DNA from: Steroidobacteraceae bacterium
GTDB taxonomy: Bacteria; Pseudomonadota; Gammaproteobacteria; Steroidobacterales; Steroidobacteraceae
Direction: 5' to 3'
DNA: 64,000 nt
NCBI GenBank assembly: GCA_036521395.1
Contig: DATDHV010000180.1
Span: forward strand, 1,881-65,880
Positions within the stretch are counted from its first letter, which is position 1. The number at the start of each line of letters is the position of its first letter. This document shows, in pieces, positions 1,229 through 21,757 of this stretch. The notes below the pieces were generated by a model. That model had not been told where the DNA came from. It searched no databases and saw only the letters and a program-made list of their open reading frames with translations. The translations under genes and the position numbers were made by a program.

Positions 1229-2493
1229 ACGGTCTGAGGTATCCCGGAGTTTGCGCTCGTCTGCGGCTTCGCTCCCAGTGAGGCGGTCAGCACGACGGAC
1301 ACCAGCGTGGCGATGGCCGATGCGGACAACAGCGCAACGTAGGACGAGAACAGATCGTAGCTGTGGCCGGCGAAGTAAGATCCCAGCGCACCGCCGGCAT
1401 TGAAGAGCACGAACAGCGTGCCGTAGATTCGGCCCAGCGAGACACGACCGAAATAGTGCACGCAGAAGAAACCGAGCGCATCGAATTCGAGCCCGAGTCC
1501 TATACCGAGTGCGATCAGCATAAAGGCCGCTGCCGAAGCACCCGGAATAAGGGCCAGCCCAGCGAGCCCGAGAACCGGGAACACCAGCAAGCCTGCAGCG
1601 ATGAACGGTGGGTGGAATCTATCCAGCATATAGCCGGCGCCCAGTCGGGCGATGATGAGTGAGAACCCAAGCAGTGCGGCGAGATTGCCGGCATCGGCGC
1701 GAGCGACCCCTCGATCCACGAGCAGCGGGATGATCTGCGAGACCATACCGTTCAGGGAAATTCCGAGCAGCAGCGTTGCCGCGGCCAGTTTCCAGAACGT
1801 CGTGGTGCGCAGGGCCTGCATGAATCCGAATCCGCCGTCCGAACCATCGCCGACCAGCGCGTCGCCACGCGGGGCGGCGTCTCCGTCCGGATTCAGGCCG
1901 CGCTCTGAGGGACGATTTCGCACCACCAGGTACAGCGCCGGTAAGACGATGAAAATATTGATGAGCCCGAGCGCCACGAAGGCATCCCGCCAGCCGCTCG
2001 CTTGAATGATCCGGCTCACGAGCGGCGGCAGGATCAGGGCGCCGGCACCGGCTCCCGATATGCCAAGCGCCAGCGCAAGCCCCTTGCGCCGATCGAACCA
2101 GGCGACAATGAGTCGGACATAGCTGATCGACTGGGTACCCGCGCCGAGCGCCGAAAGCAGGATCAGACCGAAATAATAATGACGGATGTTCCGGTCCACG
2201 AAATGAAAGAGGCACAGGATGACGCCGAAGCAGAGTGTCGACAACAACAACGGCCGTCTGACCCCGACCTTGTCGATAAGGATTCCGACCAGCGGCAGCG
2301 CAATGATCGTGGTCACGTAGACACAGGTCATTCCCAGGGCGATGGAGCCCCGCGTCCACCCGAACTCTTCCGACAATGGCAGCGTGAAGGCGCTGAAGGC
2401 GTAAATCTGTGTGCCCACGAAACCGAAGCAGATGCCGAGAGCCGATACGGCGACGATCAGCCACCCGTAGAAAGGTCTGTTGGCCGCCCTCAT
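1225..2493 (-). CDS. MFS transporter
   Basis: 422-aa ORF that is hydrophobic throughout, with ~12 predicted helices. MFS-like loop motif GILIDKVGVRRPLL. Its stop overlaps the ALDH start by 4 bp. Confidence 0.85.
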   Translation of the reverse strand: MRAANRPFYGWLIVAVSALGICFGFVGTQIYAFSAFTLPLSEEFGWTRGSIALGMTCVYVTTIIALPLVGILIDKVGVRRPLLLSTLCFGVILCLFHFVDRNIRHYYFGLILLSALGAGTQSISYVRLIVAWFDRRKGLALALGISGAGAGALILPPLVSRIIQASGWRDAFVALGLINIFIVLPALYLVVRNRPSERGLNPDGDAAPRGDALVGDGSDGGFGFMQALRTTTFWKLAAATLLLGISLNGMVSQIIPLLVDRGVARADAGNLAALLGFSLIIARLGAGYMLDRFHPPFIAAGLLVFPVLGLAGLALIPGASAAAFMLIALGIGLGLEFDALGFFCVHYFGRVSLGRIYGTLFVLFNAGGALGSYFAGHSYDLFSSYVALLSASAIATLVSVVLTASLGAKPQTSANSGIPQTV

Positions 2494-2553
2494 GAGGATC
2501 TGCCTCCGCGTTCGATTGGCAGCGCGCGCAGGACGCGTGCCCCGAATGGATAT

Positions 2554-2577
2554 TAATGAGTATGCTGAGTATCACAT
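2554..2577 (-). promoter_or_regulatory. Conserved island box, copy 1 (core AGTATGCTGAGTAT at 2559-2572), upstream of MFS-ALDH and in the MarR divergent intergenic region
   Basis: One of four near-identical boxes (see 10088, 16171, 17161). Lies 66 bp upstream of the MFS start codon. A TTGACA hexamer on the minus strand (2592-2597) sits just upstream. Confidence 0.6.
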
Positions 2578-2727
2578 CCGCTGTTCGGATGTGTCAACGG
2601 CCGCACCGGTCGCGGACGAGTTCCGCATGATTTGTGCGGTGTACTAAGGTACGCTAGGCAGTGAGCCACGAGTGCAAGCGCATCGTTTCGCACCGGAGAC
2701 TAAATAATCAATAACGAATCTACAACC

Positions 2728-3189
2728 ATGGACCGCTCGCGAGTTATATGGAAGAGACCCGGCTTCCTTGTGCGCCGACTGCAGCAAATCTGGGTCGCCG
2801 TATTCATCAATGAATGCTCGGAGTTTGAAGTGACGCCGGTACAGTGGGGCGTACTGTCGATGGTGTCCGAGAACCCCGGGGTGGGCCAGATCGAGATTTC
2901 CGAGGAATTGGGATTGGATCGGTCGAACGTCGCCAACGTCGTCCATCGCCTTGCGAGGCGCGGGCTGCTCCGACAGAAACTCAGCCCCACCGATCAGCGG
3001 AAGAAGGACATCACCATCACCAAGGCGGGGGAGAAGGTGATGTCGCGCATCGAGGAATGTGCGGGTCGGGCGCAGCGGAAGATCCTCGCGCCATTGGATG
3101 ATCGGGAGCGCGAGATCTTCATGGAACTGCTCTCGCGTCTGGTCCGGGAGAACAACCATTTGGGGCGTGCGATCCTCCGGCTCAACTAA
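2728..3189 (+). CDS. MarR-family transcriptional regulator
   Basis: 153 aa. Winged-HTH region VTPVQWGVLSMVSENPGVGQIEISEELGLDRSNVANVVHRLARRGLL..DQRKKDITITKAGE is typical of MarR. Divergent from MFS-ALDH. Confidence 0.9.
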   Translation: MDRSRVIWKRPGFLVRRLQQIWVAVFINECSEFEVTPVQWGVLSMVSENPGVGQIEISEELGLDRSNVANVVHRLARRGLLRQKLSPTDQRKKDITITKAGEKVMSRIEECAGRAQRKILAPLDDREREIFMELLSRLVRENNHLGRAILRLN

Positions 3190-3202
3190 GCTCGAAGAGC
3201 CC

Positions 3203-4342
3203 TCACTCCAGTACCGCGTTCAATTCGCGCGGCGTCGATAGCAGCGGCTCCGGCCCCTTCGGCGTAACAATGACGGTATCGCCGAGCACGAAGTAGCCGG
3301 CCAGCGGCGTGAAGGTGTTCGGATGAACCACGAGCACCGCGTTCTCTTCCAGCACCGTGTGCACTCCCTCGATAATGTGGACCTCATCGAGGTAGAGTCC
3401 CATGCAGTGCCCTCGCACACGCGTGTAGTCCGATGTGCAGTATTCACCGTAGCCGTGGCGCCTGAAGACATCGTTCTCGGCCTTGGCCACTTCGTGCGCG
3501 GTGACACCCGGTTTGATGGCCTCGAGTCCGGCGACGACGGCTTCCTCGAATAATGCAAACGACTCCCGATGCCTATCAGTCGAAGGGCCGACGACAGCGG
3601 TGCGGCAGATCTGCGTCCAATAGCCCTTGAATTGAGGTGTGAGCTCCGTTCGCACGAGATCCCCTCGCTCGAGCCGACGATCGGACGGCGGCGTCATTCC
3701 TCGCACCTCGTCGCCGCCGGAGGCGATCAACATGAAGTTGTCTTCCGCTCCCTCCGCTCGCAGGCGTGCTTCGACGTCGGCGACGATTTCGAATTCCCGC
3801 ACGCCTGGCCGGCAGGCCGCCTGAAAGGCCTTCCAGGACAAATCGCAGATCTCACCCGCACGGCGCAGCCGCGCGAGTTCGAATTCGCTCTTGACCAGTC
3901 GGATGCCGTCCATCAGATCGGTGGCAGTCGCGAATTCGATCTGAGGCAGGAGCGATTGCAGCTGCCGCCAGACAGTCACTGGCACGAACTCGGCGCCTGC
4001 AATACCGACTCGGCCGCGCGCGAAATCCTCGCGCACGCGATCCGCGAGTCCTGATACATCTGGAAACACCACTTCCTGAACATCATCGACAAACCCCGTC
4101 TGCCGCATCGCCTGCGCGTCGAGCGGCGAGCAGGCGAACGCGCTGACTGCCCCCGATAAGGGCACATAGGCTAGCGCTGCGCTCGAGTCGAGCGCCGCGT
4201 CGGTGACATAGCGGACGTTCTCACGTCGCCACGCCGGGGCGAAGGCGATCAGCGCATCAAAGCCTGCGGAACCGATGGCCTTGCGAATCCGGGCAGTGCG
4301 CCAGGCAGCTTCCGATTTTGGGCTCCGCGCCGCGGCCGTCAT
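3203..4342 (-). CDS. M24-family (creatinase/prolidase-like pita-bread fold) hydrolase, metal ligands apparently substituted
   Basis: ORF 3203..4363. Start moved to ATG 4342, which forms an ATGA overlap with the upstream stop, as at every other junction in this operon. Creatinase/prolidase N-domain plus a C-terminal pita-bread region (GDLVRTELTPQFKGYWTQICRT, GHCMGL, VLVVHPNTF, LGDTVIVT). Confidence 0.8.
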   Translation of the reverse strand: MTAAARSPKSEAAWRTARIRKAIGSAGFDALIAFAPAWRRENVRYVTDAALDSSAALAYVPLSGAVSAFACSPLDAQAMRQTGFVDDVQEVVFPDVSGLADRVREDFARGRVGIAGAEFVPVTVWRQLQSLLPQIEFATATDLMDGIRLVKSEFELARLRRAGEICDLSWKAFQAACRPGVREFEIVADVEARLRAEGAEDNFMLIASGGDEVRGMTPPSDRRLERGDLVRTELTPQFKGYWTQICRTAVVGPSTDRHRESFALFEEAVVAGLEAIKPGVTAHEVAKAENDVFRRHGYGEYCTSDYTRVRGHCMGLYLDEVHIIEGVHTVLEENAVLVVHPNTFTPLAGYFVLGDTVIVTPKGPEPLLSTPRELNAVLE

Positions 4343-5385
4343 GAGGCCAGCTCCTTCCGGCACAGCGGCACCGCGCCGGATGGGGAGATGCTCACGGTAT
4401 CTGTGGCAATGACGGGACCATCGTCACCACAGAGTGTCAACTGAATGCAGACCACCTCGTTAACCTGTAGGGGCCGATTTGAGTCGTCCGGGCTGCGATA
4501 GAGCCCGCGCGTTTCGAGATCCAGATATGGGTAGCACGCCAGCCGCGCGCGTCCCGATCCTCCAAATCGTCCGGTAGTGCGGCGCGCCAGACTCGTCTCG
4601 TTTACTCCTGGCCGCGCCGCCGCAAGTAAGTCCCGCAATGCCGTCTCCGCCAGAGTTGCCGACGGCCCGTTGCGCGACAGCGACCGCCGCACCCAGACAT
4701 CGCGGTACTGGCCGATTGCATCGATCCATTCGGTCGAATCCCCCAAGCCGCCGGCGGCCACGGTGGCGTCCTGGAAGCCATCGCGTCGCAATGCACGCAC
4801 GGCGATGGCGGCGCACTCCTCTGCACTGGTGCCGCCAGACCAGGCCAGCCTCAGCGCGTCAGCCAGCCGTCCGGCACCACTTTCAAGCAGGCGCCGCGTC
4901 TCGACCGAAGGCACGAGGCGGGCGGCGCGTACGGCAGGCCCCAGATCTTCGAGCAGCATGTCTGGCAAGGCCTCCCTGATTTGCTCGACGAGTTGGTGGG
5001 GCCACCATGGCAAGTCGATAAGCGCCAGCGATCCCCTGCATTGGCCCGGCTGATCCTGCAGATATTTGCTGACACTTTCGGCCAGCTGGGGACCGCTGCG
5101 GATGTCCTGGAGCGTCGAGGTCTGACGCATCCACGTCGTTACGCGCTTGGAGAGCTTGGTAATGAGCGCGGGAGGTCCGTCCCTAGGGACGGCCAGTACG
5201 GCCTCGCTCCAATAGAGGCAGAGATTGGTCAGATAGTTGATATCACCCGAGCGCGATACGTCGCCATACACCAGGGCGACGTGAGCGCTCGATCGCCGTA
5301 GCTGCGCTTGCAGCGCCTCTATACGGGCAGCGTAGACCTCGCGCGGTATCTCGCGTTGGTCGAGCGTGACCAATCCTCGCTTCAT
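4339..5385 (-). CDS. Divergent M24/creatinase-like protein (degenerate paralogue)
   Basis: 348-aa ORF. The N-terminal region resembles the creatinase/prolidase N-domain (ARIEALQAQLRRSSAHVALVYGD...NYLTN). The C-terminal half is only weakly pita-bread-like. 4-bp overlaps on both sides. Confidence 0.6.
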   Translation of the reverse strand: MKRGLVTLDQREIPREVYAARIEALQAQLRRSSAHVALVYGDVSRSGDINYLTNLCLYWSEAVLAVPRDGPPALITKLSKRVTTWMRQTSTLQDIRSGPQLAESVSKYLQDQPGQCRGSLALIDLPWWPHQLVEQIREALPDMLLEDLGPAVRAARLVPSVETRRLLESGAGRLADALRLAWSGGTSAEECAAIAVRALRRDGFQDATVAAGGLGDSTEWIDAIGQYRDVWVRRSLSRNGPSATLAETALRDLLAAARPGVNETSLARRTTGRFGGSGRARLACYPYLDLETRGLYRSPDDSNRPLQVNEVVCIQLTLCGDDGPVIATDTVSISPSGAVPLCRKELAS

Positions 5386-5885
5386 GATTGCTCCACCAGC
5401 CGCGAGCCGATCGCAATCACGCCACCGGCGCGCAGCATCTCGAGGAGGAAGGGATCGGCGGGGGGCCCTCGATGCGTGCGAGCCGTGCGTTCGACCTTCA
5501 CCTCGCCCGCGGGCACATCCACTTCGAGCACGTCACCTTCGATAACGTTCTGGCGGATGCCTGGAATTTCGGTGATCGGCAGTCCCACTTCGAAGGCGTT
5601 GCGATAGAATGTGCGGGCAAAGCTCTCCGCCACGATGCACGAAATGCCCGTTGCCTGCAGCGCCCGCACCGCAATAGCTCGACCGGAGGACTGTCCGAAA
5701 TGCTTTCCAGCCACGAGAACATCCCCACGCTGAACATTGCCCGCGAAACCGGGGTTGGCGTCTTCCAGTACGTGGCGCGCAATTTCGTCAATCGGCAGGA
5801 AGAATCGGTGCGACTTGATGATCTGGTCGGTGGGTACGTAGTCCCCGACGATCCAGCACGCTCCTTTGAACCTGAAATCCGTCAT
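5382..5885 (-). CDS. Aconitase-family small subunit (LeuD-like), degenerate motif
   Basis: 167 aa with the LeuD-like swivel domain. The canonical NFGCGSSREHA motif reads HFGQSSGRAIA. 4-bp overlaps with both neighbours. Confidence 0.75.
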   Translation of the reverse strand: MTDFRFKGACWIVGDYVPTDQIIKSHRFFLPIDEIARHVLEDANPGFAGNVQRGDVLVAGKHFGQSSGRAIAVRALQATGISCIVAESFARTFYRNAFEVGLPITEIPGIRQNVIEGDVLEVDVPAGEVKVERTARTHRGPPADPFLLEMLRAGGVIAIGSRLVEQS

Positions 5886-7144
5886 GACAGGTCCCGAGCG
5901 TCCGTGAGCGAGCCGCGCAATGCCGATGCCGCCACGGTCAGCGCGGAGGCCAGGAACATGCTGGCCAAGGCGCTACCGTTGCGACCCGGAAAGTTACGCG
6001 AGTGGGTCGAGATCATGCTCTCACCGGCGGCCATGGCGCCCATGTTGATGCTCTGATTGGAACCGGTGCTTGGCGGGAACCAGAGCGCCCCGGCCTCGTG
6101 CAGTTGCTGAACGAGACCCTCCTGAAGTGCCTGCGCGAAGACGGGCCTGCTTGACGGGACGATGTTGAAGCGGACATTCGGGTGTACACGCTGACCCGCG
6201 AGCACCCGCGCAGCCATGCGAATGTCCTCTATGCGGCCACCCCCGTGTCCGCCTATCTCCGCCCATTGAATCCTCGTTCCGGCTAACGCGCGCACGGGCT
6301 TGACGTTGCCCACGCTCGGCGGGCAGGCGACCTGCGGTTCGATTTCCGACACATCGAATCTCCAGGTGGCTTCGGGACGTCGCTGGGGTTGCGGCGTAAT
6401 CTCCAACCCCTCCCACGCCTGCATCGATTTTGCGGCGCGCGCGAACTCGAACAGCTTCTCATCCGGCTCGATGTACCCGCACTTCGCGCCCACATCCACG
6501 GTGATTAGCGGGAACAGCCAACGGTCGAAAAGGCTCAAGCCTTCGATGAAGGGCCCGCTGAACTCCAGCGCCTTGTAGACGGCTCCGTCCTCCCCGATCT
6601 GAGCCACAAGCCACAAGGCGATATCGCGCGCCGAAGTGCCGTCGCGCAATGCGCCAGACAGCTCGATACGAACCGTGGCCGGCACGCGGAACCAGGCTTT
6701 GCCGTGCGGAAACACCATGCCGGCGTGGCAATCGTTTCCAACTGCCACCGCAAACGCACCCAGCGTGCCGTGCACTGGCGTGTGGCTGTCGGATCCGACA
6801 ACTACCATCCCCGGGCCAATGAAGCCGCCTCGGGCGACGGCATTGTGGATATTGCCGCTACCGCAGTTGAGCAATGTGATGCCGTATTTCTCCGCCCAAT
6901 CGCGATCGGATTTGAGCACCTCGGCCTCGCGCTCTCGGGGCGGCGAGAAAATATGATCGAACACCATGATCACGCGATCGGGATGCTTGAGCGGCTTGTT
7001 GACCTTCTCTTCGTAGACACGCGAGGTCATGTACCCGCTCAGATCGTGCATGATCATTCGATCCACCTCGGCAATGACTATATCGCCGGGCGAGACGCTG
7101 CCGCGTCCGCTCGCGCGCGCGAGAATGCTCTCGATCAGGTTCAC
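5882..7144 (-). CDS. Aconitase-family large subunit (LeuC-like) lacking the three Fe-S cluster cysteines
   Basis: 420 aa. Retains VVGSDSHTP and STHSRNFPGRNGS. GSC(A/T)N is replaced by GGHGG, and PGCGAC by PSTGSN. Confidence 0.8.
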   Translation of the reverse strand: MNLIESILARASGRGSVSPGDIVIAEVDRMIMHDLSGYMTSRVYEEKVNKPLKHPDRVIMVFDHIFSPPREREAEVLKSDRDWAEKYGITLLNCGSGNIHNAVARGGFIGPGMVVVGSDSHTPVHGTLGAFAVAVGNDCHAGMVFPHGKAWFRVPATVRIELSGALRDGTSARDIALWLVAQIGEDGAVYKALEFSGPFIEGLSLFDRWLFPLITVDVGAKCGYIEPDEKLFEFARAAKSMQAWEGLEITPQPQRRPEATWRFDVSEIEPQVACPPSVGNVKPVRALAGTRIQWAEIGGHGGGRIEDIRMAARVLAGQRVHPNVRFNIVPSSRPVFAQALQEGLVQQLHEAGALWFPPSTGSNQSINMGAMAAGESMISTHSRNFPGRNGSALASMFLASALTVAASALRGSLTDARDLS

Positions 7145-8412
7145 GCCAGGACCTCGCGGGGGTCGGTGATCACGCCAGTAATGGCAGAGGCGGCCGCTGT
7201 CGCCGGACTGGCCAGGTAAATGGCAGATTCGTAGCTGCCCATGCGGCCGCGGAAGTTGCGATTGGCGGTCGAGAGCGTGACCTCACCCTGGTCCATCGCG
7301 CCGCCATCCCCGGCACAGGCGCCGCATCCGGGATTCGTGATAAGGGCGCCGGCTTCGATGAGCGTCGACAGTACACCGCTGTCCGCGGCCTTCTTCATGG
7401 TATCGCGTGAACCCGGCGTGACGAGCAATCGGACTCCTGCCGCCACCCTGCGCCCTTTCAGGATCTTCGCCACCTCCACCAGGTCGTCATACTTGGCGTT
7501 GGCGCAGGAGCCAACAAATACCTGGTCCAGCTTCACTCCGGCGACCTCGCCCACAGGGCGTACGTTGTCGACCGCGTGCGGGCATGCCACTTGTGGCGCA
7601 AGACTCGTTGCGTCGATTGAGAGTTCGCGTACATAAAGGGCGCCGTCATCCGGCAGCAACGCATGGCGCGCGGGATCGTCGACGCCAGCGGCTGCCAGAT
7701 AGTCGTAGGCGATCGCATCGGGACGCACGTAGGCGTTCTTGGCACCGAGCTCCATGGCCAGATTGCAAAGCGTCATGCGCTCGGAGATCGACATCGATGC
7801 CGTCAGCGCTCCGTCGAACTCCATCGACTGATACGTTGCGCCGTCGGCCGTCAGGTCCCCGATGAGCTTGAGCATGATATCCTTGGGAAACACGCCAGGC
7901 GAGAGTCGTCCCGCAAGCGTCACCCGCATGGACTCCGGCACCATCATCCACAGTACGCCCGTCACCCAGGTCGCTGTAATCTCGCTGAAGCCGACGCCCG
8001 TACCAAGCGCACCTAGCGCACCGTAGATTGTCGAATGCGAATCTGTGCCGATGATGATCTCGCCGGGCCTGATGAGACCGCGTTCCATCAATACGAGGTG
8101 GGCGATGCCCTCGTTAACATCGAAGAAATGCCCAACGCCGTAGTGCCGTGCAAACTCCCGGCACAGCCGATGGTGACCGGCTACCTGTGCGGTGGGTGCG
8201 GGTGCGATGTGATCCATCACCATGGCAATTCGCTCGGGATGGCGGATCGTTGCTCCCGGGAGCTTTTCGAAGGTCTTGATGCAACGCCAGCTCGCCGTGT
8301 GACTCATGTAGAGGTCGGGTGCCACCTCGACGATGGTGCCCGGAGCGAGACCGCTCGAGCCGGAAGCGCGCTCGATTGCCTTCTGTGCAAAGGTCTTCGC
8401 AGATTCCGTCAC
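7141..8412 (-). CDS. Aconitase-family hydro-lyase large subunit (LeuC/HacA-like), intact 4Fe-4S ligands
   Basis: 423 aa with motifs IIGTDSHST, VFVGSCANAKYDDL, NPGCGACAG and STANRNFRGRMGS. Confidence 0.9.
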   Translation of the reverse strand: MTESAKTFAQKAIERASGSSGLAPGTIVEVAPDLYMSHTASWRCIKTFEKLPGATIRHPERIAMVMDHIAPAPTAQVAGHHRLCREFARHYGVGHFFDVNEGIAHLVLMERGLIRPGEIIIGTDSHSTIYGALGALGTGVGFSEITATWVTGVLWMMVPESMRVTLAGRLSPGVFPKDIMLKLIGDLTADGATYQSMEFDGALTASMSISERMTLCNLAMELGAKNAYVRPDAIAYDYLAAAGVDDPARHALLPDDGALYVRELSIDATSLAPQVACPHAVDNVRPVGEVAGVKLDQVFVGSCANAKYDDLVEVAKILKGRRVAAGVRLLVTPGSRDTMKKAADSGVLSTLIEAGALITNPGCGACAGDGGAMDQGEVTLSTANRNFRGRMGSYESAIYLASPATAAASAITGVITDPREVLA

Positions 8413-8927
8413 CGCCGCGCCTCGGATGCGAGCTTGCGCGCGACGTAGGGAATCAATCCGCCTGCATTGAGGATGCGCGTCAGATTTTCGGGGTAGGGCG
8501 GAAATGAGAAACGTCCGCCCAGCGTCTCGATCATGCCCGCCGCCACATCGATAAATACCTCGTCACCGTCGGCGATATGAGCCTCGGCATCGGCCGACTG
8601 CAGGGCGGCGAGTCCAGTATTGATAGCGTTGCGGAAGAATACGCGAGCGAATGATTGTGCCACCACAGCCTGAATGCCCGCACCGACCAGGCAGCTGGCG
8701 GCCTGCTCGCGGGCGCTACCGCAACCGAAATTCCTGCCGGCCACTATCACTTTGGCCGCCCGAAAGCGGTCCTGAAACGCGCGCCCGAGCGGCTCAAAGG
8801 CGTGCCCGGCGAGTTCAACCGGATCGATGCTCGTCAGATATCGGCCCGGAATGATCACATCGCTGTTGACGTGATCGCCGAGCTTCACGCATCGACCGCC
8901 GATGACCCATGAGCTGCGTTCGCTCAT
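8409..8927 (-). CDS. Aconitase-family hydro-lyase small subunit (LeuD/HacB-like)
   Basis: 172 aa with motif VIVAGRNFGCGSAREQA and FARVFFRNAINTGL. Confidence 0.9.
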   Translation of the reverse strand: MSERSSWVIGGRCVKLGDHVNSDVIIPGRYLTSIDPVELAGHAFEPLGRAFQDRFRAAKVIVAGRNFGCGSAREQAASCLVGAGIQAVVAQSFARVFFRNAINTGLAALQSADAEAHIADGDEVFIDVAAGMIETLGGRFSFPPYPENLTRILNAGGLIPYVARKLASEARR

Positions 8928-10006
8928 GGTGTCGTCGCCTCCAGGAACCAGTCCGTGGGTACCTCGCGTCCAAGTCCCCGCTGCTTCGCCAACTCCAACA
9001 CGCGCGATCCCACGGCGGCAAACTGCAATCCCATGCCGGTATTGTTTGCGAACACGGTGATGTCTTTATCCGAACTGCGTCCCTTACCGCGTCCGCTCAG
9101 GAGGTCGCCGATCGACACGATGTCCTCCATGGTGATGCGGCCGCGGGTCACAGGGCCTAGGATGTCGAATTGATTGTCGTGCAGAATCTGCTCCTTGGCG
9201 GTGACGACGATGCGGTTGGCGCGATCGAAGGTCACATCGTCTAGTTCACGGCGCTTCGCGGTTCCGTCCGGCGAGGTGATGGCCGTGACGTGTGTACCTG
9301 CTTCGAGCCACTCGCCCTCAAAACACGGATCCATGGCGGCTGTCGCACAGGTAACGATCTCGCAACCCACCACGGCATCGCGCGGCTGATCGACTGCAAC
9401 GATGCGAACTTCCTGGAAGTGCGAACCTTCCGTCTGCGCAAATCGCTGGCGGTTTGCGGGGGTCGGGCTGTACACACGCACCTCCTTGATGGAGGGCCGC
9501 ACGCGCAACAGACAGTGAAGATGCGATTCCGCCTGCCACCCGGACCCGAAAAGACCCGCCACTCGCGGCGACTTCACTGCCAGCTCACGGATCCCCAGTG
9601 CCGAGGTGGCGCCGACGCGCCACTTCTGCACGATACTGTCGTGCATGACACAGAGCGGCTCCAGGGTGCTCATGCTGAACAGGAACACCAGACCGACGTA
9701 CTTGCCCCCTGGTGCCGCCGGCAGCAGGCGCCGGCGCTCCACTCCGTTGGCAAGGCGCTCGACACCGACCAGGTCCGAAGTAATGCGCAGAGCCCAGACG
9801 CCACTAGAAACGCTGCCGCCTTCCTGAGACTTGAAACGGAAATGAAATCCGGGATGCCTGGCGTCCTCGACGGGAAAGTAGGTATGGGTACGCTCGCGAT
9901 TTGCGGCGCGCGCATCGGCGTACTCCTTGTACGCAATCTCGAGCGAGGACATGCAGTCCTCCACCGTCAATAAGCTCCCGACATCCTCGTTCGACAACAC
10001 CAACAT
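8924..10006 (-). CDS. Ornithine cyclodeaminase / mu-crystallin family NAD(P)-dependent enzyme
   Basis: 360 aa. Rossmann motif GLFGSGWQA and family-typical C-terminus (ITVFANNTGMGLQFAAVG). First gene of the 7-gene overlapping operon. Confidence 0.9.
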   Translation of the reverse strand: MLVLSNEDVGSLLTVEDCMSSLEIAYKEYADARAANRERTHTYFPVEDARHPGFHFRFKSQEGGSVSSGVWALRITSDLVGVERLANGVERRRLLPAAPGGKYVGLVFLFSMSTLEPLCVMHDSIVQKWRVGATSALGIRELAVKSPRVAGLFGSGWQAESHLHCLLRVRPSIKEVRVYSPTPANRQRFAQTEGSHFQEVRIVAVDQPRDAVVGCEIVTCATAAMDPCFEGEWLEAGTHVTAITSPDGTAKRRELDDVTFDRANRIVVTAKEQILHDNQFDILGPVTRGRITMEDIVSIGDLLSGRGKGRSSDKDITVFANNTGMGLQFAAVGSRVLELAKQRGLGREVPTDWFLEATTP

Positions 10007-10087
10007 GCTTCAAGTGCTCCTTGACTCGAGTTGCCCCCCTCGATGAATGCAGTCCTGTCAAGTGGGGTGAATGTGGTTCAGTAAATT

Positions 10088-10109
10088 AAGAAGTGTACTG
10101 AGCATTACC
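10088..10109 (-). promoter_or_regulatory. Conserved island box, copy 2 (core AGTGTACTGAGCAT at 10092-10105), upstream of the OCD-like operon
   Basis: 86 bp upstream of the start at 10006. Shares AGT...CTGAG.A and the 3' flank TACC with the copy at 16171. Confidence 0.55.
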
Positions 10110-10230
10110 TCCGTTCGCAATTTGCACACCAACAGCGCCACCGTCGCCGAACACCTCGCCGTGATCGCGATACTTTCGGCGGCTTCCGTTGCTCTGGCAG
10201 CCGGTACGCATCATCTGGCGGGCCTCTCGG

Positions 10231-10929
10231 TCACTGCTGATCCGCGTGATACTGATTGAGCTCGATGACCTGGCCGTCCGGATCGACGACGTAGATCGAG
10301 TCCGGCTTGCCGTCATCAGCGCGTAGCGGCGTGTTTATGAATCGGATACCGGCCGCCTTCAGCTTTACCAACAGCCCGGCGAGATCCGTCACCCGATAGG
10401 CGTTGTAGCCCTTGCCCTCGAAATTGCCGGTGGGATTTTTGTAGATGCTCTTGTCGAGAGGAGTGCCCGTCAACTCCCAGACCTCGATCCAGGGTACGTG
10501 TGACCCGATCGTCGGTCCGCCCGGCATGTTTAGAAGGAGATGCTTGTAGTGCCCCGTCTTGAGGCCTAGCAGTTGGTCCATAGCTGGGTTCTCGGCTCGA
10601 TCGGTGATGTCGTGCGCTACTGTAAATCCCAGTAGATCCACGTAGAAGTGCCGGCACTTAACGATGTCCGCGGTGAAGATGTGCGTATGATCCAGGCCGA
10701 GCACGCCCGCCGGGCTCGGCGCGAGGGTCGCGGGATGATCGACCGTCGGCACGTTGAAGTGCGGCAGGTGGTACGAGCTCGCAGCCGGCGGCGCACCCGC
10801 CGTGCCGCCCGATTGTTCCTGACCGGCGCCTTGCACCACGGCGCCGGTCGAAAGCGCGGTCAGGAGAATCATCCCGTGCCAGGCCGCTCTGCGCGCTCGC
10901 GCCTTTCCTGGCAAGTCGTTGCTTCGCAT
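10231..10929 (-). CDS. Secreted VOC (glyoxalase/bleomycin-resistance/dioxygenase) family protein
   Basis: 232 aa. N-terminal signal-like segment (AWHGMILLTALSTGAVVQGAG), a low-complexity linker, then a VOC module (GLDHTHIFTADIVKCRHFYVDLLGF ... YVVDPDGQVIEL). Confidence 0.75.
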   Translation of the reverse strand: MRSNDLPGKARARRAAWHGMILLTALSTGAVVQGAGQEQSGGTAGAPPAASSYHLPHFNVPTVDHPATLAPSPAGVLGLDHTHIFTADIVKCRHFYVDLLGFTVAHDITDRAENPAMDQLLGLKTGHYKHLLLNMPGGPTIGSHVPWIEVWELTGTPLDKSIYKNPTGNFEGKGYNAYRVTDLAGLLVKLKAAGIRFINTPLRADDGKPDSIYVVDPDGQVIELNQYHADQQ

Positions 10930-10961
10930 GTCGATGTCCTCAGGTTTGTGACGATTGGTGG

Positions 10962-11639
10962 TTAATCGCTGTCCTTTCCCCAGTAGTTGTTCAGCTCGAT
11001 AACCTGCCCGTCCGGATCGATCATGTAGACCGCGCCGGGAAGATGATGGACGGGATTGATGTTTGGCTCGGCTACGAACTTGACCCCCTGAACCTTTAGA
11101 CGCGTGATGATCTCCGCCAGATTCTTCACCCGATAGGCGTTGTAGCCCTTGCCCTGAAAGTTGCCCGTGGGATTGTTATAGATACTCTTATCAAGCGGGA
11201 CTCCGGTAATCTCCCAAAGCTCGATCTGCGGAACGTGCGTACCATAGGAAGGTCCGCCTGGCATGTTCAGGAGCGCCGATTTGTAATGGGCGTTCTTAAG
11301 ACCCAGCAGATTGTCCATGCGCGGATTCACCGGTGTGTCCTCGACGGGCGTGGCTTGCGTAAAGCCGAGCAGGTCGACGTAGAAGTGAATGGATCGATTG
11401 ATGTCGGCCGTAAAGACGTGTGTGTGCTCGAGTCCGTAAAAACCCTTCGCATTCGCATGTACGGGAGCCGGATGATCGACGTGCGGCAGATTCTGTCCGG
11501 CATCCGAATAGGCGTCGGGGGGCGGTGCGGCGGTCTGGGCGGTAGCGCTGGCCGACATAGCGGTGGCGACTCCGCTGAGGGCCGCACCAATCAAAGCTCG
11601 AGCGAAGCGACTCTTCCCGGTCAGATGCATGGCGTTCAT
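10962..11639 (-). CDS. Secreted VOC family protein (tandem paralogue of 10231..10929)
   Basis: 225 aa. Signal-like N-terminus (ALIGAALSGVATAMSASATAQ). Collinear similarity to its neighbour (GLEHTHVFTADINRSIHFYVDLLGF, NPTGNFQGKGYNAYRV, YMIDPDGQVIEL). Confidence 0.75.
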   Translation of the reverse strand: MNAMHLTGKSRFARALIGAALSGVATAMSASATAQTAAPPPDAYSDAGQNLPHVDHPAPVHANAKGFYGLEHTHVFTADINRSIHFYVDLLGFTQATPVEDTPVNPRMDNLLGLKNAHYKSALLNMPGGPSYGTHVPQIELWEITGVPLDKSIYNNPTGNFQGKGYNAYRVKNLAEIITRLKVQGVKFVAEPNINPVHHLPGAVYMIDPDGQVIELNNYWGKDSD

Positions 11640-11677
11640 CTCTCACTCCTCGGTGGTGGTGGCGCGTGCGCGCCTGC

Positions 11678-13792
11678 TCAGTTCCAATGGATATTCGAGG
11701 GCTGGTTGTGGGCGCCGCGCGAGACGTACTCGTAAAGCGCCCCAACATCGTCCTTGCTGAGTTCGCCCGAGAAGCTCGGCATACCGAGCGCTTCGAGGGC
11801 GCCCCCCAGCACGATGGACCGGAAGCCGTCGGGTCCTATCTCATGCACACGCTCCAGGTTGGGCAGATTTGGAGCGGAACCGGATCTACCATGACAGGAG
11901 GCGCAGTGCCCGTACAACCGTGCGCCGCGTATCATCAGCTCCGGATCGGCCGGCGCGAACTTGCTCAAATCCACGACCGGCGGGCCCTTCGGCACAGGGC
12001 GCTTCGGGGGTGTCGGAACCTCGCCGCCATCGAGCTTGAACACCAGCATGCGGCCCTCGTTCTCGTAGATCCTCGCCGCGGAGTCATCCGCCATCCGCCA
12101 GCTGAGAGCACCGCCGTAGCCCGCGGCAACCGCGACATATTGTGTTCCGCCCACCGAGTACGTCATCGGCCCCGCAATGGCGGCGCTGCCCGTGAACAGC
12201 CGCTTGAGCTCCGCGCCCGTGCGCGCATCGTAGGCATTGAAATAGCCATCCTGTGTCGGTTGAAACACAAGGTCGCCGGCCGTGGCGAGAACGGATCCGT
12301 TCCAAGTGTCGCTGTGTTTTACCTGCCAACGAACTACGTGAGCAATTGGATCCCAGGCGCGCAGAAACCCTCCGATGTCGACCGTCGGCTGACCCTTGGT
12401 CATCTCGGCGAGCTGCTTGGGCGAAGCGATCAGATGCCAGATGTAGGAGTGCGCGGGATTCATCGAGAATGACGTCGGATTATCCTGTGCCGGGATATAG
12501 ACGAGCCCGGTCTTCGGGCTGTACGCCTGCGGAAACCAGTCGTGCGCACCGTTGCCATTCGGAAAGATCAATCGATCGTGTTTGCTGTAATCGGCATAAT
12601 CGGTTACTACCGGGCGCCCGGTCTTCATGTCGATACCGCTGGCCCAGTTCACCGCACCGTACTGTTGCGCCGAGAGTAATTCACCGGTCTTGCGATCCAG
12701 GACGTAGAAAAACCCGTCCTTCGGCGCCTGCATCGCCACCTGGCGCACACGACCATTGATCCGAACATCCGCCAGCGTGATGGGACTGTCCGCGTCGTAG
12801 TCCCAGCGGTCGCCTGGCACTTCCTGGTAGTGCCAGGCCACACGCCCCGTGTCCGCATGCAGCGCCATGATGGACGTGATGTATAGGTCGTCGGTCTTGT
12901 CCTCCGGTCGCTGCTGCTTCCACGGACCGGTGTTCCCAGTGCCGAAATAGAGCAGATTCAGCTTAGGATCGAAGGACATCATCCCCCAGACGCTGCCGCC
13001 GCCTTGATCAGTCCATACGTCATCGGCAGGCCAGGTTCTTGCCGCCGCGGCTTCATCGGCATTCTCGAACGGTCCGTTAGGCCCCTTGGGCACTACGAAG
13101 AATCGCCAGACTTGCGCGCCGCTTCGGGCATCGTAGGCAGTCACATAGGCGCGAACTCCTGAATCGCCGCCGCTGTTGCCGAGGATCACCTTGCCATTTG
13201 TCGCTAGTACGGGACCCGTCACACTGTATGGGCGATCGTGATCGATGATGGTGTCGACATTCCAGTCGACTTTGCCGGAGCCGGCATCAAGAGCCACCAG
13301 GTGCCCATCGAGCGTGGCGACATAGACGCGGCCCTTCCACACCGCAAGGCCCCGATTGACGATGTCGCAGCACACGTGCCTGACGACGCTGGATCGATTG
13401 ACTGGCTGGTAGGACCAAAGTGTGTGCCCGGTCACCGCATCGAATGCGAACACCTGGCCCCAGGTACTGCTAACATACATGACACCGCCGACGACGATCG
13501 GGGTAGCTTCCAGACCACGATCGGTATTCATGTCGGCCTGCCAAGCGAAGCCTAGTCGCCCCACCGTCTGCGTGTTGATCTGCGCCAACGGCGAGTAGCG
13601 GCGCTCCGAATAATCCCCACCACTCGATGGCCATTGCGATCCATCCTTTGCAAAAGCCGCCACCGTGGCCGCATCGACATTGGCGGCAATCGGGGGCGAC
13701 GCCTCGGCCGGCAGCGGCGACAGCAGAGCCATCGCCAGCCCAGCCAGCACGGGGCAGAGCATTCGTAGATTCACCGCCAACTCCGGGTACAC
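11678..13792 (-). CDS. PQQ-dependent quinohemoprotein dehydrogenase (alcohol dehydrogenase type II-like)
   Basis: 704 aa. Signal peptide, a beta-propeller with the vicinal Cys pair (VRHVCCDIVNRG), and a C-terminal cytochrome c domain with CASCH heme motif. Confidence 0.9.
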   Translation of the reverse strand: MYPELAVNLRMLCPVLAGLAMALLSPLPAEASPPIAANVDAATVAAFAKDGSQWPSSGGDYSERRYSPLAQINTQTVGRLGFAWQADMNTDRGLEATPIVVGGVMYVSSTWGQVFAFDAVTGHTLWSYQPVNRSSVVRHVCCDIVNRGLAVWKGRVYVATLDGHLVALDAGSGKVDWNVDTIIDHDRPYSVTGPVLATNGKVILGNSGGDSGVRAYVTAYDARSGAQVWRFFVVPKGPNGPFENADEAAAARTWPADDVWTDQGGGSVWGMMSFDPKLNLLYFGTGNTGPWKQQRPEDKTDDLYITSIMALHADTGRVAWHYQEVPGDRWDYDADSPITLADVRINGRVRQVAMQAPKDGFFYVLDRKTGELLSAQQYGAVNWASGIDMKTGRPVVTDYADYSKHDRLIFPNGNGAHDWFPQAYSPKTGLVYIPAQDNPTSFSMNPAHSYIWHLIASPKQLAEMTKGQPTVDIGGFLRAWDPIAHVVRWQVKHSDTWNGSVLATAGDLVFQPTQDGYFNAYDARTGAELKRLFTGSAAIAGPMTYSVGGTQYVAVAAGYGGALSWRMADDSAARIYENEGRMLVFKLDGGEVPTPPKRPVPKGPPVVDLSKFAPADPELMIRGARLYGHCASCHGRSGSAPNLPNLERVHEIGPDGFRSIVLGGALEALGMPSFSGELSKDDVGALYEYVSRGAHNQPSNIHWN

Positions 13793-13845
13793 GCCATCAC
13801 AGCTTGTTTAGGCGCGCTCGGACTCGTAACGACATTCGGGCACAA

Positions 13846-16098
13846 TCACTCGGTCGTATAGGCAACGGAGACGCCATAGGTGCGCGGATCGCCATGGAAT
13901 GAGACAGCCGCGCCCGCGGTCAGGAACTCATTGCCGACGGTATAGGTAATGTAGTGGCGGTCCCCAAGATTATGGCCCCAGAGCGAGAAGGTCCAGTGGC
14001 CGTCGCTGCTGCGCCAAGGAAGATTCCCATCGATCACGCCGTACCCGCCAGCGCCGTATCTGCTCGGGTTCAGGTCCTCATGCGGATCGAACCACACATG
14101 CGAGCGATACGTTATGCGGACCTGCGGTTCGAAAGTGCTGCCACCCGAAAGCAGGAATTTATACTGTGCGGACGAGTCAGTCGTGAACTTGGGCGCATTG
14201 GTGAACTCGTGCCCCGCAAAGCTCAGGAACGGCAGGAACTGGAACTGGTCGTAGCGCGTATTCAACAGTCCCGCTGACACCGAGAACGTCCACCCGGCAA
14301 TATCGCGCGCGTCGAGCTCGATTTCCGCTCCCTTCGATTTGCCACTCGCGGCATTCTTGGTGAGCGCCGTTGTGTCGCCCGGGACCAAGGGGTTTGGCAC
14401 CAGTACCAGGGTCTGGAGATCTGTGAGGTCGTTGTAAAAGACGGCCAGATTCGCAATCAAATGCTGATTGAAGGACGTAGTCTTCAGGCCCACTTCGTAG
14501 GTGTTGTCCCGCTCAGGATTATAGGGCTCCAGCGTCGAATCGGCGCTGAACCCACCGCTCTTGAATCCGCGGCTCGCACTGGCGTAGGCGAGCAGTCCCT
14601 TGATCGGACGCCATTCCCCTACGATGCGTCCTGTTGGCGCCGACCAGTTATCCGACTTGCTGAGATCGTATTGGGGCAGGAAAGCAGGACCGGCGTCGGG
14701 GAACTGGATCGAGCCAAATCCGTGCGCCTGCTTGACCTCATGCGTGTAACGCGCCCCAACCCCTAGAGTGAATGTGTCCGTTATGGCCCAGCGCACGTCT
14801 CCAAACACCGCGTAGTTATAGGATATCTGCGAGACACCATCGTTAGTATTGGACGCCAAGCCCTGTCCGGCAAAGATGGGGTCCGTGAACGCCGGGTTCT
14901 GCGCCTGATAGACATTGAGATCTTCGTGGTAGAAATAGAGGCCGGTAACCCAGTCGAACGGCCCGCTCTTCGATGCCAGCCGAAACTCCTGACTGTATTC
15001 GTTGACATTATTCGGCGACTGGTCGATGGCAATCATCTGTGGCGAGCCATCGAAATCGATATAGTCGCGGTAGTTCGCGTGATCAAACCCACTGATGGTG
15101 GTAAAGGTCATTCCCAGAACATTGATGTTTCCTGTCAGATATGCGCCCTTCGCATTGATGACTTCCTGCGGAGCGAACGACAGTGACACCTCATTCCAGG
15201 GCAGGCCCGCGCCCTTATATCCCGTGAAGGTATTGACATTCAGGTCTGAGTAGACGACCGGGGTGGTACTGTTGCTACCGTTGCCATGCAAATTGAGCGT
15301 CCAGCTCATGTCGGAGCTAGGCTTCCACACCGCCAGAGCGCGTGCACCCCAGTTGCTGACGTCATCGAGGTGGTGGGTTCCTGGCGCATCCTGGTTGATG
15401 TTGGTGACCCAGCCGTCGCGATTTCGCATCACGCCAGACACACGCACCGCCAGCGTGTCGGAAATAGGAACCGAAACGCCGCCATCGAAATCGCGCTCAT
15501 TGAAGCGTCCATAGGTGACCGAACCGTCGGCTTCAAACTGGTCTCCGGGCTTGCGCGAATACAAATCGATGGCGCCGGCGTTAGTGTTGCGCCCGAAGAG
15601 GGTGCCCTGCGGACCGCGCAGAACCTCGACGCGTTCCTGGTCGAACATCTGTCCGAGCTGAGCACTACGCGCGCCAACGTAGACGTCGTCGTAGTAGACG
15701 CCAACGGGTGAAACTGCGGTTGGTCCGAAAACCTGACCGATGCTGATGCCCCGGATCGAGATGTTCGGGTTACCCATCGCATAAGGCGTCACGAAGTTCA
15801 TATTCGGCGTGGAATCGGCGAGTTTGCCGATGTCTGTGACACCCCGGCTCTCGAGATCCTGCTGTGTGAGGACTTCCATGGACAGCGAGACATCCTGCAC
15901 CGATTGCTCACGCCGCTGAGCTGTGACTAGAACCTCCTGAAGCTCGGAGTCGCCTTCGCTTGCGGCCGCGAGCGTTGGCGCAATCGATTGATCGGCGGCG
16001 GATGCGCCGGTTGACCAGAGAATGATTGCAACAAGCGCCGAAACCGTCGAAGCGCGGCCTGTGATCTGACTTCGGCCAGGTAATTCAAACTCAAACAT
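13846..16098 (-). CDS. TonB-dependent outer-membrane receptor
   Basis: 750 aa. Signal peptide, plug region (EVLVTAQRREQSVQDVSLSMEVLT, RVEVLRGPQGTLFGRNT), and a long beta-barrel rich in alternating aromatic residues. Confidence 0.9.
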   Translation of the reverse strand: MFEFELPGRSQITGRASTVSALVAIILWSTGASAADQSIAPTLAAASEGDSELQEVLVTAQRREQSVQDVSLSMEVLTQQDLESRGVTDIGKLADSTPNMNFVTPYAMGNPNISIRGISIGQVFGPTAVSPVGVYYDDVYVGARSAQLGQMFDQERVEVLRGPQGTLFGRNTNAGAIDLYSRKPGDQFEADGSVTYGRFNERDFDGGVSVPISDTLAVRVSGVMRNRDGWVTNINQDAPGTHHLDDVSNWGARALAVWKPSSDMSWTLNLHGNGSNSTTPVVYSDLNVNTFTGYKGAGLPWNEVSLSFAPQEVINAKGAYLTGNINVLGMTFTTISGFDHANYRDYIDFDGSPQMIAIDQSPNNVNEYSQEFRLASKSGPFDWVTGLYFYHEDLNVYQAQNPAFTDPIFAGQGLASNTNDGVSQISYNYAVFGDVRWAITDTFTLGVGARYTHEVKQAHGFGSIQFPDAGPAFLPQYDLSKSDNWSAPTGRIVGEWRPIKGLLAYASASRGFKSGGFSADSTLEPYNPERDNTYEVGLKTTSFNQHLIANLAVFYNDLTDLQTLVLVPNPLVPGDTTALTKNAASGKSKGAEIELDARDIAGWTFSVSAGLLNTRYDQFQFLPFLSFAGHEFTNAPKFTTDSSAQYKFLLSGGSTFEPQVRITYRSHVWFDPHEDLNPSRYGAGGYGVIDGNLPWRSSDGHWTFSLWGHNLGDRHYITYTVGNEFLTAGAAVSFHGDPRTYGVSVAYTTE

Positions 16099-16170
16099 GT
16101 GACCCCCCTATTCACTTAGATCCTCGCCGGACTCAGTTTGAATCCGACGGCTGCAGGAATTCGACGACAT

Positions 16171-16192
16171 ATGCAGTATACTGAGTAATACC
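16171..16192 (-). promoter_or_regulatory. Conserved island box, copy 3 (core AGTATACTGAGTAA at 16175-16188), upstream of the TonB receptor operon
   Basis: 77 bp upstream of the start at 16098. On the minus strand, TTGACA (16214-16219), 18 nt, then TATGGT directly precede the box. Confidence 0.6.
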
Positions 16193-16303
16193 ATAGCAGC
16201 GCGCCTGACGCAGTGTCAAACTCATCGACGCACTATTTCCCCCGTATAAACGCAGCGCGCGCGGCGCGGTCAGGCGAAGAGGCTACGATACAAAATAAAT
16301 TCC

Positions 16304-17098
16304 TCATAGCGGCGCATCCGGATTGATGAGCGTGCGCCACATATGCGCCACCGGGCCGTTGTCGTTGCCGAGTCCCTCGGCCGGCTGTTTGAAATGACGA
16401 CCGACGATGTCGGTGAACGTTTCGAATGCCACGACCGCCTTGGGGTCGAAGGCATAGAGGTCACTGGCAGTCACCTCACGAGCATCACCGTACCAGCGAT
16501 GCTTGCGCACGAATTGATAGGTCTGTTCAAGACGCGGATCTGGGACATAGTCATCGCCGTAAATCCGTCGGTAGATATCCGGGTAGCTATATCCGACCTC
16601 GGCGTCTGCGAAGAAGCGCAAGGGCTGGTGATACTTGATCGCGAATGCCGTCCGTTCGGACACGTACGGCTCCATGAGCTGCGCGCCCCAATATCCATGG
16701 TCTGCGCACATGAACTCCTGCGCGATATCGTGCAGCAGGCAGGCAAGCACGATCTCCTCGTCTGCGCCTCTCTCGAGCGCTTTGTTGGCGCTCTGCAGGC
16801 AATGATTGCCGGTGTTCGCCAAGCGAAGCCGGAAGAAATCGGCCAGTTTCGGAGCCACAGGCATGGGCGGTAAGCGCGCTACGAGGCCGCCCTCGGCGCG
16901 GCTCCAGAACATGCGGCCAACCCCGCGCCTGTACGGACGGGTGGTGATCTGCGCATCGAGTTCGGCAACCGTTGGGTAACGCGCGGAAGGTGCGGTAAGC
17001 GCCGCCGAGCCAGCCGGCAGTGCAGCACTCACATTCGGCTCGGATGTGACCTTTTCAGTGTGCAACTGCCGATCCCCCAGCCCATGCTCCTCGTCCAT
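16304..17098 (-). CDS. HD-domain metalloprotein (phosphohydrolase or HD-type oxygenase; function unknown)
   Basis: ORF track gives 16304..17140 with a GTG start. ATG 17098 is preferred because it is preceded by GAGGAG with a 6-nt spacer. His/Asp pattern: NHCLQSA, LLHDIAQ, ADHGYWG, IKYHQ, plus later Asp residues. Confidence 0.75.
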   Translation of the reverse strand: MDEEHGLGDRQLHTEKVTSEPNVSAALPAGSAALTAPSARYPTVAELDAQITTRPYRRGVGRMFWSRAEGGLVARLPPMPVAPKLADFFRLRLANTGNHCLQSANKALERGADEEIVLACLLHDIAQEFMCADHGYWGAQLMEPYVSERTAFAIKYHQPLRFFADAEVGYSYPDIYRRIYGDDYVPDPRLEQTYQFVRKHRWYGDAREVTASDLYAFDPKAVVAFETFTDIVGRHFKQPAEGLGNDNGPVAHMWRTLINPDAPL

Positions 17099-17160
17099 CG
17101 TTATCTCCTCAACGTTCGCAGGCGGAACAGTATGAGGCACCCTTTAAGGTGCAGATATTA

Positions 17161-17183
17161 TAATCAGTACGCTGAGTATCAAG
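17161..17183 (-). promoter_or_regulatory. Conserved island box, copy 4 (core AGTACGCTGAGTAT at 17166-17179), upstream of the HD-domain gene
   Basis: 68 bp upstream of ATG 17098. Flanked on the minus strand by TTGACT (17182-17187) and TATAAT-like sequence. Nearly identical to copy 1 over ~20 nt (TGATACTCAGCrTACTsATTA on the minus strand). Confidence 0.6.
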
Positions 17184-17315
17184 TCAAGAGCAACAGATTG
17201 AGAGAGATCGGCGTCCAACCACATCACGCTATGAGACGGGTTTCTGCCAAAATTGACCTGAAATTCCCGGTTAACCGCCACGGCTGACAGTGGCATGCTA
17301 GGGGGAGCGCCCTGG

Positions 17316-18914: not shown

Positions 18915-18924
18915 GATGAGCGGA

Positions 18925-21757
<2,833 letters not shown>

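Follow-up and report, generated by a model that had tools for sequence, protein, structure and literature searches.

Near the start of a 64,000-nucleotide stretch of Steroidobacteraceae DNA (contig DATDHV010000180.1; the whole stretch is called the window below) lies a gene island in which a short conserved box, matching the pattern AGTRYRCTGAGYAW, had been predicted to stand upstream of every minus-strand transcription unit and to serve as the operator of a regulon, the only candidate regulator being a MarR-family gene at 2728. The locus therefore raises the question of what the box is and which protein reads it. Our analysis gives strong grounds for reading the boxes as MarR operators of the PcaV type, to which the island MarR would bind as a repressor and thereby co-control four uptake and catabolism units. 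This reading of a shared operator, with the island MarR as its regulator, is supported by phylogenetic footprinting, by the co-variation of box and MarR gene, and by near-identity with the PcaV operator.

Occurrence of the box in the window

A pattern search with AGTRYRCTGAGYAW gave four matches in the 64-kb window, all on the plus strand (2559, 10092, 16175 and 17166), and none in 100 dinucleotide-preserving shuffles of it, which bears out the number of copies originally reported. Because genes within each unit overlap or lie only 32-53 bp apart, the island resolves into four minus-strand units with one box each, and gene order together with the pattern search confirmed that a box stands ahead of every one of them in the same orientation. 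The distances from box to start codon (66, 86, 77 and 68 bp) and the number of invariant positions (9 of 14) were correct on re-measurement and recounting. The four predicted operators, in the 20-bp form explained below, are as follows.

2553-2572, minus strand: operator 1, ATACTCAGCATACTCATTAA; upstream of the MFS-ALDH (aldehyde dehydrogenase) unit; pattern and position weight matrix (PWM) match; invariant in alignments A3/A4
10086-10105, minus strand: operator 2, ATGCTCAGTACACTTCTTAA; upstream of the OCD operon (OCD, ornithine cyclodeaminase family); pattern and PWM match; invariant in alignment A2
16169-16188, minus strand: operator 3, TTACTCAGTATACTGCATAT; upstream of the TonB-receptor operon; pattern and PWM match; conserved with respect to the related contig L161
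17160-17179, minus strand: operator 4, ATACTCAGCGTACTGATTAT; upstream of the HD-like gene; pattern and PWM match; conserved with respect to L161

A low-threshold PWM scan of the window recovered these four sites plus a single chance-level match within an open reading frame (ORF) for an EngA/Der-type GTPase, and thus no further credible copy, in agreement with the earlier remark that none had been noticed elsewhere in the window. A fifth candidate at 44575-44588 (AGTATGCTGAGCTT, two mismatches) lies within the N-terminal coding part of an XerD-like integrase ORF; as its second arm is missing and its score falls below the PWM threshold, it was judged a chance match. De novo comparison of 8-mers across the four upstream regions found no second motif, since 12 of the 14 that are common to all of them are part of the box; the random-region control for this comparison was uninformative, because GC-rich coding DNA has many GC-rich 8-mers in common. 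A literature search with the exact box strings returned only unrelated eukaryotic primers.

Architecture of the element

Read in the direction of the genes, the element is ATACTCAG-N4-CTGAnTAT, an imperfect inverted repeat of about 20 bp in which the original 14-mer corresponds to the strong arm and the centre. The consensus of the four sites is wTrCTCAG-yryA-CTnnnTAw, and its idealised form is ATACTCAG-N4-CTGAGTAT. The TCAG of the left arm is invariant in all four window sites and in every site of the relatives; the right arm reads CTGA in site 4, CTGC in site 3, CTCA in site 1 and CTTC in site 2, and the central 4 bp of the window sites are A/T-rich YRYR (TATA, CATA, TACA and CGTA).

The element is dyad-symmetric, because a relaxed search gave overlapping opposite-strand matches at two of the four sites and a PWM built from the window and orthologous sites scored on both strands at every site. 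According to this, the AGTA-N5-AGTA direct repeat that had been described inside the box, and that is true of only three of the four copies, is incidental, a by-product of the palindrome; the symmetry is that of a TCAG-N4-CTGA inverted repeat with TA-rich outer arms. The AT-rich 5' flank described earlier is indeed present, and is re-read here as the weaker, degenerate second arm of the palindrome.

Conservation in related genomes

A scan with the OCD protein, taking one genome per species, yielded 80 loci, the nearest being Steroidobacteraceae/Nevskiaceae-type metagenome-assembled genomes. The box stands before both OCD and MFS in L001 and L002 and before OCD in L003 and L004, and in the alphaproteobacterium Emcibacter (L006) one copy lies between marR and OCD and another ahead of a TonB receptor. 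The 51-kb metagenome contig L161, which has the complete gene order, carries four sites at the four orthologous positions. Extra sites in relatives precede MmgE/PrpD-like genes, and the sites of relatives occur in both orientations relative to the adjoining genes.

Phylogenetic footprinting, which had been suggested as a check, showed the box as the dominant invariant block in the orthologous upstream regions. In the alignment of OCD upstream regions (A2; ten sequences, including one from an alphaproteobacterium) the only invariant columns are TCAGT..AC..A, and upstream of MFS (A3 and A4; six to seven relatives) ATACTCAGC.TACT is invariant together with a TTGACA 18 bp further upstream. Site 3 forms a conserved block when the TonB-receptor upstream region is aligned to L161, and the region upstream of the HD-like gene, aligned to the same contig, contains the conserved block TTGACTT..TACTCAG..TACTGATTATAAT.

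Two loci carry a pair of tandem operators before the TonB-receptor gene (L002, 3376-3418; L168, 2515-2559), spaced 20-22 bp centre to centre, where the window has one. Such an arrangement may give cooperative or tighter repression of uptake in those organisms.

Association of the box with the MarR gene

The regulator gene that we propose to act at these sites is the following.

2728-3189, plus strand: marR, PcaV-like MarR-family winged-helix regulator of 153 aa; proposed binding protein, from Pfam, PcaV homology and co-occurrence with the box

The protein scores above the cut-off with the Pfam MarR/MarR_2 models (PF12802, 51 bits; PF01047, 46.6 bits) and matches 59 solved MarR-family structures, and Pfam scans turned up no other regulator gene in the island, consistent with its description as the sole regulator there. 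Its gene and site 1 occupy one intergenic region.

The 80 OCD loci allowed the distribution of the box to be compared with that of the regulator. All three loci with an island-type MarR have a strong site, and 75 have neither box nor MarR, although one of these, from Nevskiaceae, possesses MFS and the whole operon. The other two are contigs of 5-6 kb on which a site but no MarR is visible; L164, a longer contig from the same lineage, has MarR at a distance of 7 kb. The OCD operons of Actinomycetota, Binatia, Alicyclobacillus and 'Deltaproteobacteria' (L007-L069; OCD identity 65-71%) are likewise without island-type MarR and without box. This co-variation (Fisher p = 1.2e-4) indicates that the box tracks the MarR gene, not the operon. 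Furthermore, the placement of marR varies: the gene diverges from MFS in the window and from OCD in L006, and lies upstream of OCD in L002, and it always adjoins a box.

Independently of the operon, MarR homologues were aligned and used to scan metagenomes, which yielded 80 loci (41-74% identity). TCAG-N4-CTGA with up to one mismatch and a free centre proved too noisy, and a YRYR centre was required instead. With no more than one mismatch allowed, the density of TCAG-YRYR-CTGA in these loci is 1.29 per kb up to 300 bp from the MarR gene versus 0.14 per kb elsewhere, a 9-fold enrichment (Poisson p about 3e-35), with a density of 0.02 per kb in shuffled sequence; at least one MarR-flanking site was found in 41 of the 80, and perfect TCAG-N4-CTGA is common in homologous loci.

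A TCAGTATACTGA-type palindrome is retained by MarR homologues of 42-49% identity (L087-L160; e.g. L098 at 7807 and 10323, L104 at 9523 and 10442, L126 at 4036), whose neighbours include genes for molybdenum hydroxylase, XdhC, Rieske oxygenase, amidase and amidohydrolase_2 and dihydropyrimidine-dehydrogenase-like/PydA-like genes. Because these homologues sit in quite different gene contexts, the palindrome goes with the regulator clade and not with one pathway, and its members seem to be general regulators, with a conserved operator, of the catabolism of N-heterocycles and aromatic acids.

Among proteins of solved structure, the island MarR is closest to PcaV of Streptomyces coelicolor (E 8.7e-20; 38.5% identity across 130 aa), a protocatechuate-responsive repressor with two 20-bp operators, OI and OV (PDB 4fht/4g9y; PMC3616709). 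In OI, the stronger of the two, TCAGxxxxCTGA is a perfect inverted repeat; this operator lies 10 bp downstream from where transcription starts. PcaV binds its operator with a dissociation constant of 4.6 nM and is released by protocatechuate (PMC3616709). A biosensor study published later used ATACTCAGTGCCCTGACTAT as the PcaV operator for electrophoretic mobility shift assays and surface plasmon resonance (PMC6882365). Compared with this OI 20-mer, which is thus a probe sequence taken from a secondary paper, the four window sites agree in 13-16 of 20 positions, and in 11-15 of 16 when the central 4 bp are set aside. Site 4 reaches the 16 of 20, and the left arm ATACTCAG of OI is identical in sites 1 and 4.

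Promoter context and the question of autoregulation

A promoter scan placed sigma70-type hexamers at three of the sites. Site 1 was assigned TTGACA-18-GATACT, with the -10 GATACT inside the left arm and both hexamers conserved in relatives; at site 3 the predicted promoter, TTGACA-18-TATGGT, ends at 16190, 2 bp before the site; and site 4 fills the spacer/-10 region after TTGACT (TTGACT-16-GATTAT in the scan, with TTGACT-19-TATAAT as an alternative reading). On this placement site 1 would fall on the -10, site 3 on the +1 region and site 4 on the spacer of promoters whose hexamers are conserved in relatives, which fits, for these three sites, the proposal of an operator in or just downstream of a sigma70-type promoter. 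The accompanying claim that each box adjoins or overlaps a TTGACA-like hexamer needs correction, as the relation of box to hexamer differs among the four promoters.

The regulator gene itself has a separate predicted promoter.

2632-2660, plus strand: predicted marR promoter, TTGTGC-17-TAGGCA (putative hexamers); conserved blocks GCAAATC and CTAGGGCAC in alignment A4

Its conserved blocks lie about 60 bp from site 1, do not overlap operator 1 and contain no conserved box. A weak site in this promoter, GGTGTACTAAGG (about 2639-2650), is not conserved in L161 or L001, and a search of the A4 blocks for an autoregulatory site comparable to OV of PcaV found none that is conserved. Thus, marR does share the intergenic region of the first box, as originally noted, but this does not imply autoregulation: because the promoter blocks are separate from operator 1, marR looks constitutively expressed, and its autoregulation is not supported.

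Proposed repression by the island MarR and alternative explanations

We propose that a homodimer of the PcaV-like island MarR would bind each 20-bp imperfect palindrome, the operators overlapping the -10, spacer or +1 of four sigma70-type promoters (MFS-ALDH, OCD operon, TonB-receptor operon and HD-like gene), and that the bound dimer would occlude RNA polymerase and keep the whole uptake and catabolism island off. Induction would follow when a substrate or intermediate of the pathway, probably an organic acid gripped by the conserved helix-alpha1 arginine R16, enters the dimer interface and makes the winged helices rotate, so that the DNA is released and all four units are switched on jointly. 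Repression by occlusion is suggested because of the placement of the sites and the behaviour of PcaV. Binding by the MarR protein encoded at 2728-3189, the direction of the control, the positions of the start sites and the nature of the ligand are all points that we infer.

Several observations weigh against this reading and set its limits. The evidence is comparative and homology-based throughout. Promoter hexamers are consensus matches only, and no promoter of the OCD operon passed the scan; for site 2 we infer TTGCGA-17-TACACT, which is conserved in L001 and not convincingly in L161. In the right arms only 4-7 of 10 positions are self-complementary, and because of this degeneracy affinity may vary widely among the four predicted operators; moreover, the PWM was seeded with the asymmetric pattern of the original prediction and may inflate the apparent asymmetry of the arms. 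Finally, three of four MarR homologues at 54-58% identity have no recognisable site beside the gene and the fourth (L089) has a degenerate one, indicating that the link between MarR and box is not universal.

The island MarR could bind the box as an activator or anti-repressor, given that some MarR-family proteins activate transcription (PMC4737184) and that, with the OCD promoter not confidently placed, site 2 could lie upstream of the true one. We regard this as improbable, as three of the four sites fall on a predicted -10, spacer or +1, which is where a repressor would be expected, and PcaV, the closest characterised homologue, is a repressor with OI just downstream of its start site. Alternatively, the box might serve as operator for some other transcription factor whose gene lies elsewhere than in the island; the association with MarR would then be indirect, through the mobile block that box and MarR gene share. 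The attribution to MarR is read from sequence, and the two short contigs with a box and no visible MarR gene would fit such a factor, but those contigs span only 5-6 kb and a longer one of the same lineage has the gene. In addition, the palindrome persists beside MarR homologues of only 42-49% identity in contexts as unrelated as Mo-hydroxylases, Rieske oxygenases and amidases, and the box matches the validated PcaV operator, all of which makes an outside factor highly improbable.

Two further explanations dispense with a repressor altogether. The centre of the box (TATACT, TACACT, CATACT) resembles a -10 element and, in our reading of the OCD upstream region, follows TTGCGA by 17 bp, so that the box could be a core promoter element (a -10-like TAyACT with an extended region) for an alternative sigma factor. 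However, its distance to the conserved -35-like hexamers varies by more than 20 bp among the four units, it is dyad-symmetric and scores on both strands, and orthologous operons that lack the MarR gene lack the box as well; we therefore give a sigma factor very little credence. A role in RNA, as a conserved 5'-untranslated-region hairpin or leader element, would suit the position of the sites 66-86 nt before start codons, and if the promoters are predicted correctly, some of the sites may be transcribed. Against it, an Rfam scan of positions 1-20000 with E values as high as 1 allowed gave no match, site 4 falls within a predicted promoter spacer and would be untranscribed from that promoter, the arms are too degenerate (4-7 of 10 positions complementary) for a stable hairpin, and the sites of relatives occur in both orientations relative to neighbouring genes, which leaves an RNA element with next to no weight. 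The repression of the four units by the island MarR is thus the reading that we carry forward.

The probable effector of the island MarR

In PcaV, Arg15 is a 'gatekeeper' that binds the carboxylate of the ligand and is needed for DNA binding, and His9 and His21 read the hydroxyls of protocatechuate. The equivalent of Arg15 in the island MarR, R16, is invariant in 32 homologues, and alignment shows R10 and W22 in place of the two histidines. Since the arginine is kept while the histidines are replaced, the effector is probably anionic and carboxylate-bearing, and not protocatechuate.

A bolder and joint interpretation, which we put forward as tentative and consider rather unlikely as a whole, is that the four operators delimit the complete regulon of an uncharacterised catabolic route and that MarR is the sensor of a new ligand. 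The proposed route would comprise TonB-dependent uptake, a PQQ dehydrogenase, two VOC-fold enzymes, an OCD-family enzyme, two LeuCD-like dehydratases, two creatinase-like M24 proteins, MFS/ALDH and an HD-like protein. As part of the same tentative interpretation, its core operon would be conserved over at least five phyla and its substrate would be unlike any known effector of PcaV, NicR or CouR. That substrate could be, for example, an amino-polycarboxylate or an N-heterocyclic acid.

In Emcibacter (L006, 5722-8947) the MarR/OCD cluster adjoins genes for a LigB-type ring-cleavage dioxygenase, an Amidohydro_2 (LigJ-like) protein and PrpF (LigU-like), which hints at a link to tricarboxylate intermediates of gallate or of protocatechuate 4,5-cleavage type.

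The island and its transcription units

The units that carry the predicted operators are listed below.

1-2493, minus strand: unit 1, MFS transporter (1225-2493) and an aldehyde dehydrogenase running past the window start; Pfam, synteny with L161
3203-10006, minus strand: unit 2, OCD, LeuD-like, LeuC-like, LeuC-like, LeuD-like and two creatinase-like M24 genes, all overlapping or abutting; synteny in relatives
10231-16098, minus strand: unit 3, TonB-dependent receptor, PQQ/cytochrome c dehydrogenase and two glyoxalase/dioxygenase-fold genes; L161 has the identical order
16304-17098, minus strand: unit 4, 264-aa protein with an HD match at E 0.0038 (below cut-off); the L161 orthologue is preceded by a site

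Pfam agrees with the gene content as first described (MFS, ALDH, MarR, the OCD operon, the TonB-receptor operon and a weak HD-like gene). The label of island is reasonable because its GC content (58-64% at window positions 1-17200) is below that of the adjoining guaA/guaB/xseA region (68-71% at 17300-26000). Additionally, the neighbours of the island in L161 are different ones (a LysR regulator and GCV_T). Low GC together with different neighbours suggests that the block moves horizontally.

Within unit 2, the second creatinase-like gene (M24b, 4339-5385) has a Creatinase_N match only, with no significant Peptidase_M24 match and no NCBIfam match, and its product may have degenerated into a partner of the adjacent M24a that has no catalytic role. 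In two other loci (L166, 9149-9979, and L167) the boxed OCD operon has as neighbours two histidine kinases and a response regulator of OmpR type, the latter divergent; in this lineage, where the contig ends before any MarR could appear, control may have a second layer.

Implications

The analysis turns an anonymous MarR gene of an uncultured Steroidobacteraceae-like genome into a probable regulator that has a predicted operator and a predicted regulon of four promoters. As the PcaV half-site ATACTCAG is common to homologues from Actinomycetota to Alpha- and Gammaproteobacteria, the regulons of this MarR clade should be predictable by a simple scan. Furthermore, the regulon ties a widespread and unstudied operon (OCD, two LeuCD-like pairs and two creatinase-like proteins) to outer-membrane uptake and periplasmic oxidation, which narrows the search for the substrate. 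A literature search on the combination of OCD, creatinase, isopropylmalate and MmgE genes found nothing, and the pathway of the OCD operon therefore seems uncharacterised. The repressor-operator pair could become a biosensor once its effector is identified, and, if MarR senses a new ligand, the box is a ready-made reporter for finding it. The type of switch is ordinary and well understood and brings no new regulatory principle; here it stands before an uncharacterised pathway, and the substrate degraded by this regulated and widely conserved pathway is a more interesting question than the switch itself.

Comparison with known systems

Fur, Zur and LexA boxes and sigma-54 and extracytoplasmic-function promoters were considered, and their sequences do not fit the element. 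Among MarR-family systems, the best NCBIfam model match of the island protein is that of Saro_0803 of Novosphingobium aromaticivorans, a resveratrol-responsive MarR with a 22-bp A/T-rich site near the -10 (PMC10046596); the match to this family (NF053777) is 76.5 bits against a cut-off of 200, too low for the protein to count as a member, and the operator GCAATA-N6-TATTGC is unrelated to the box. Some close homologues of the island MarR are labelled, KEGG-style, 'lower aerobic nicotinate degradation pathway regulator'. In this regard, NicR of Pseudomonas putida and BpsR of Bordetella, MarR repressors of nicotinate pathways that were compared by protein and gene context only, resemble the more distant homologues that have the palindrome beside Mo-hydroxylase, XdhC and amidase genes, a setting typical of N-heterocycle catabolism; the BpsR-like structures 6pcp/6pco are weaker matches than PcaV (E about 1e-9).

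The CouR regulon of Rhodococcus jostii RHA1 offers a parallel in layout, as this MarR-family repressor has one inverted-repeat box in each of four catabolic or transport promoters (PMC4737184). Its box, cATTGA-N5-TCAATg, overlaps the -35, and its effector is a coenzyme A thioester that acts by steric and charge occlusion (PMC4737184). The island likewise has a single conserved box at each of four promoters, placed over predicted core promoter elements, and its MarR matches the CouR structure in PDB entry 6c28 (E 2e-11), but CouR is a more distant homologue, with a different promoter position; a CouR-type operator (ATTGA-N5-TCAAT) was rejected for the island because its sequence differs from the box.

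PcaV remains the best model for the element. Both proteins have the same start of the recognition helix (GLDRS), and both systems have a 20-bp TCAG-N4-CTGA operator, sites at or just after the promoter (predicted ones here, for three of the four sites), a repressor of catabolic genes (a predicted one here) and a regulator gene that adjoins a site. There are differences as well. PcaV belongs to an actinomycetotal host and the island to Gammaproteobacteria; PcaV controls one operon and itself from one intergenic region, whereas here there are four separate promoters and a marR promoter that is apparently without a site; and the central 4 bp are TGCC in PcaV and A/T-rich YRYR here. Lastly, PcaV governs the beta-ketoadipate pathway, to which the genes of the island are unrelated, and the residues at which it reads the hydroxyls of protocatechuate, His9 and His21, are R10 and W22 in the island MarR, which points to a different effector for what is probably the same kind of operator.

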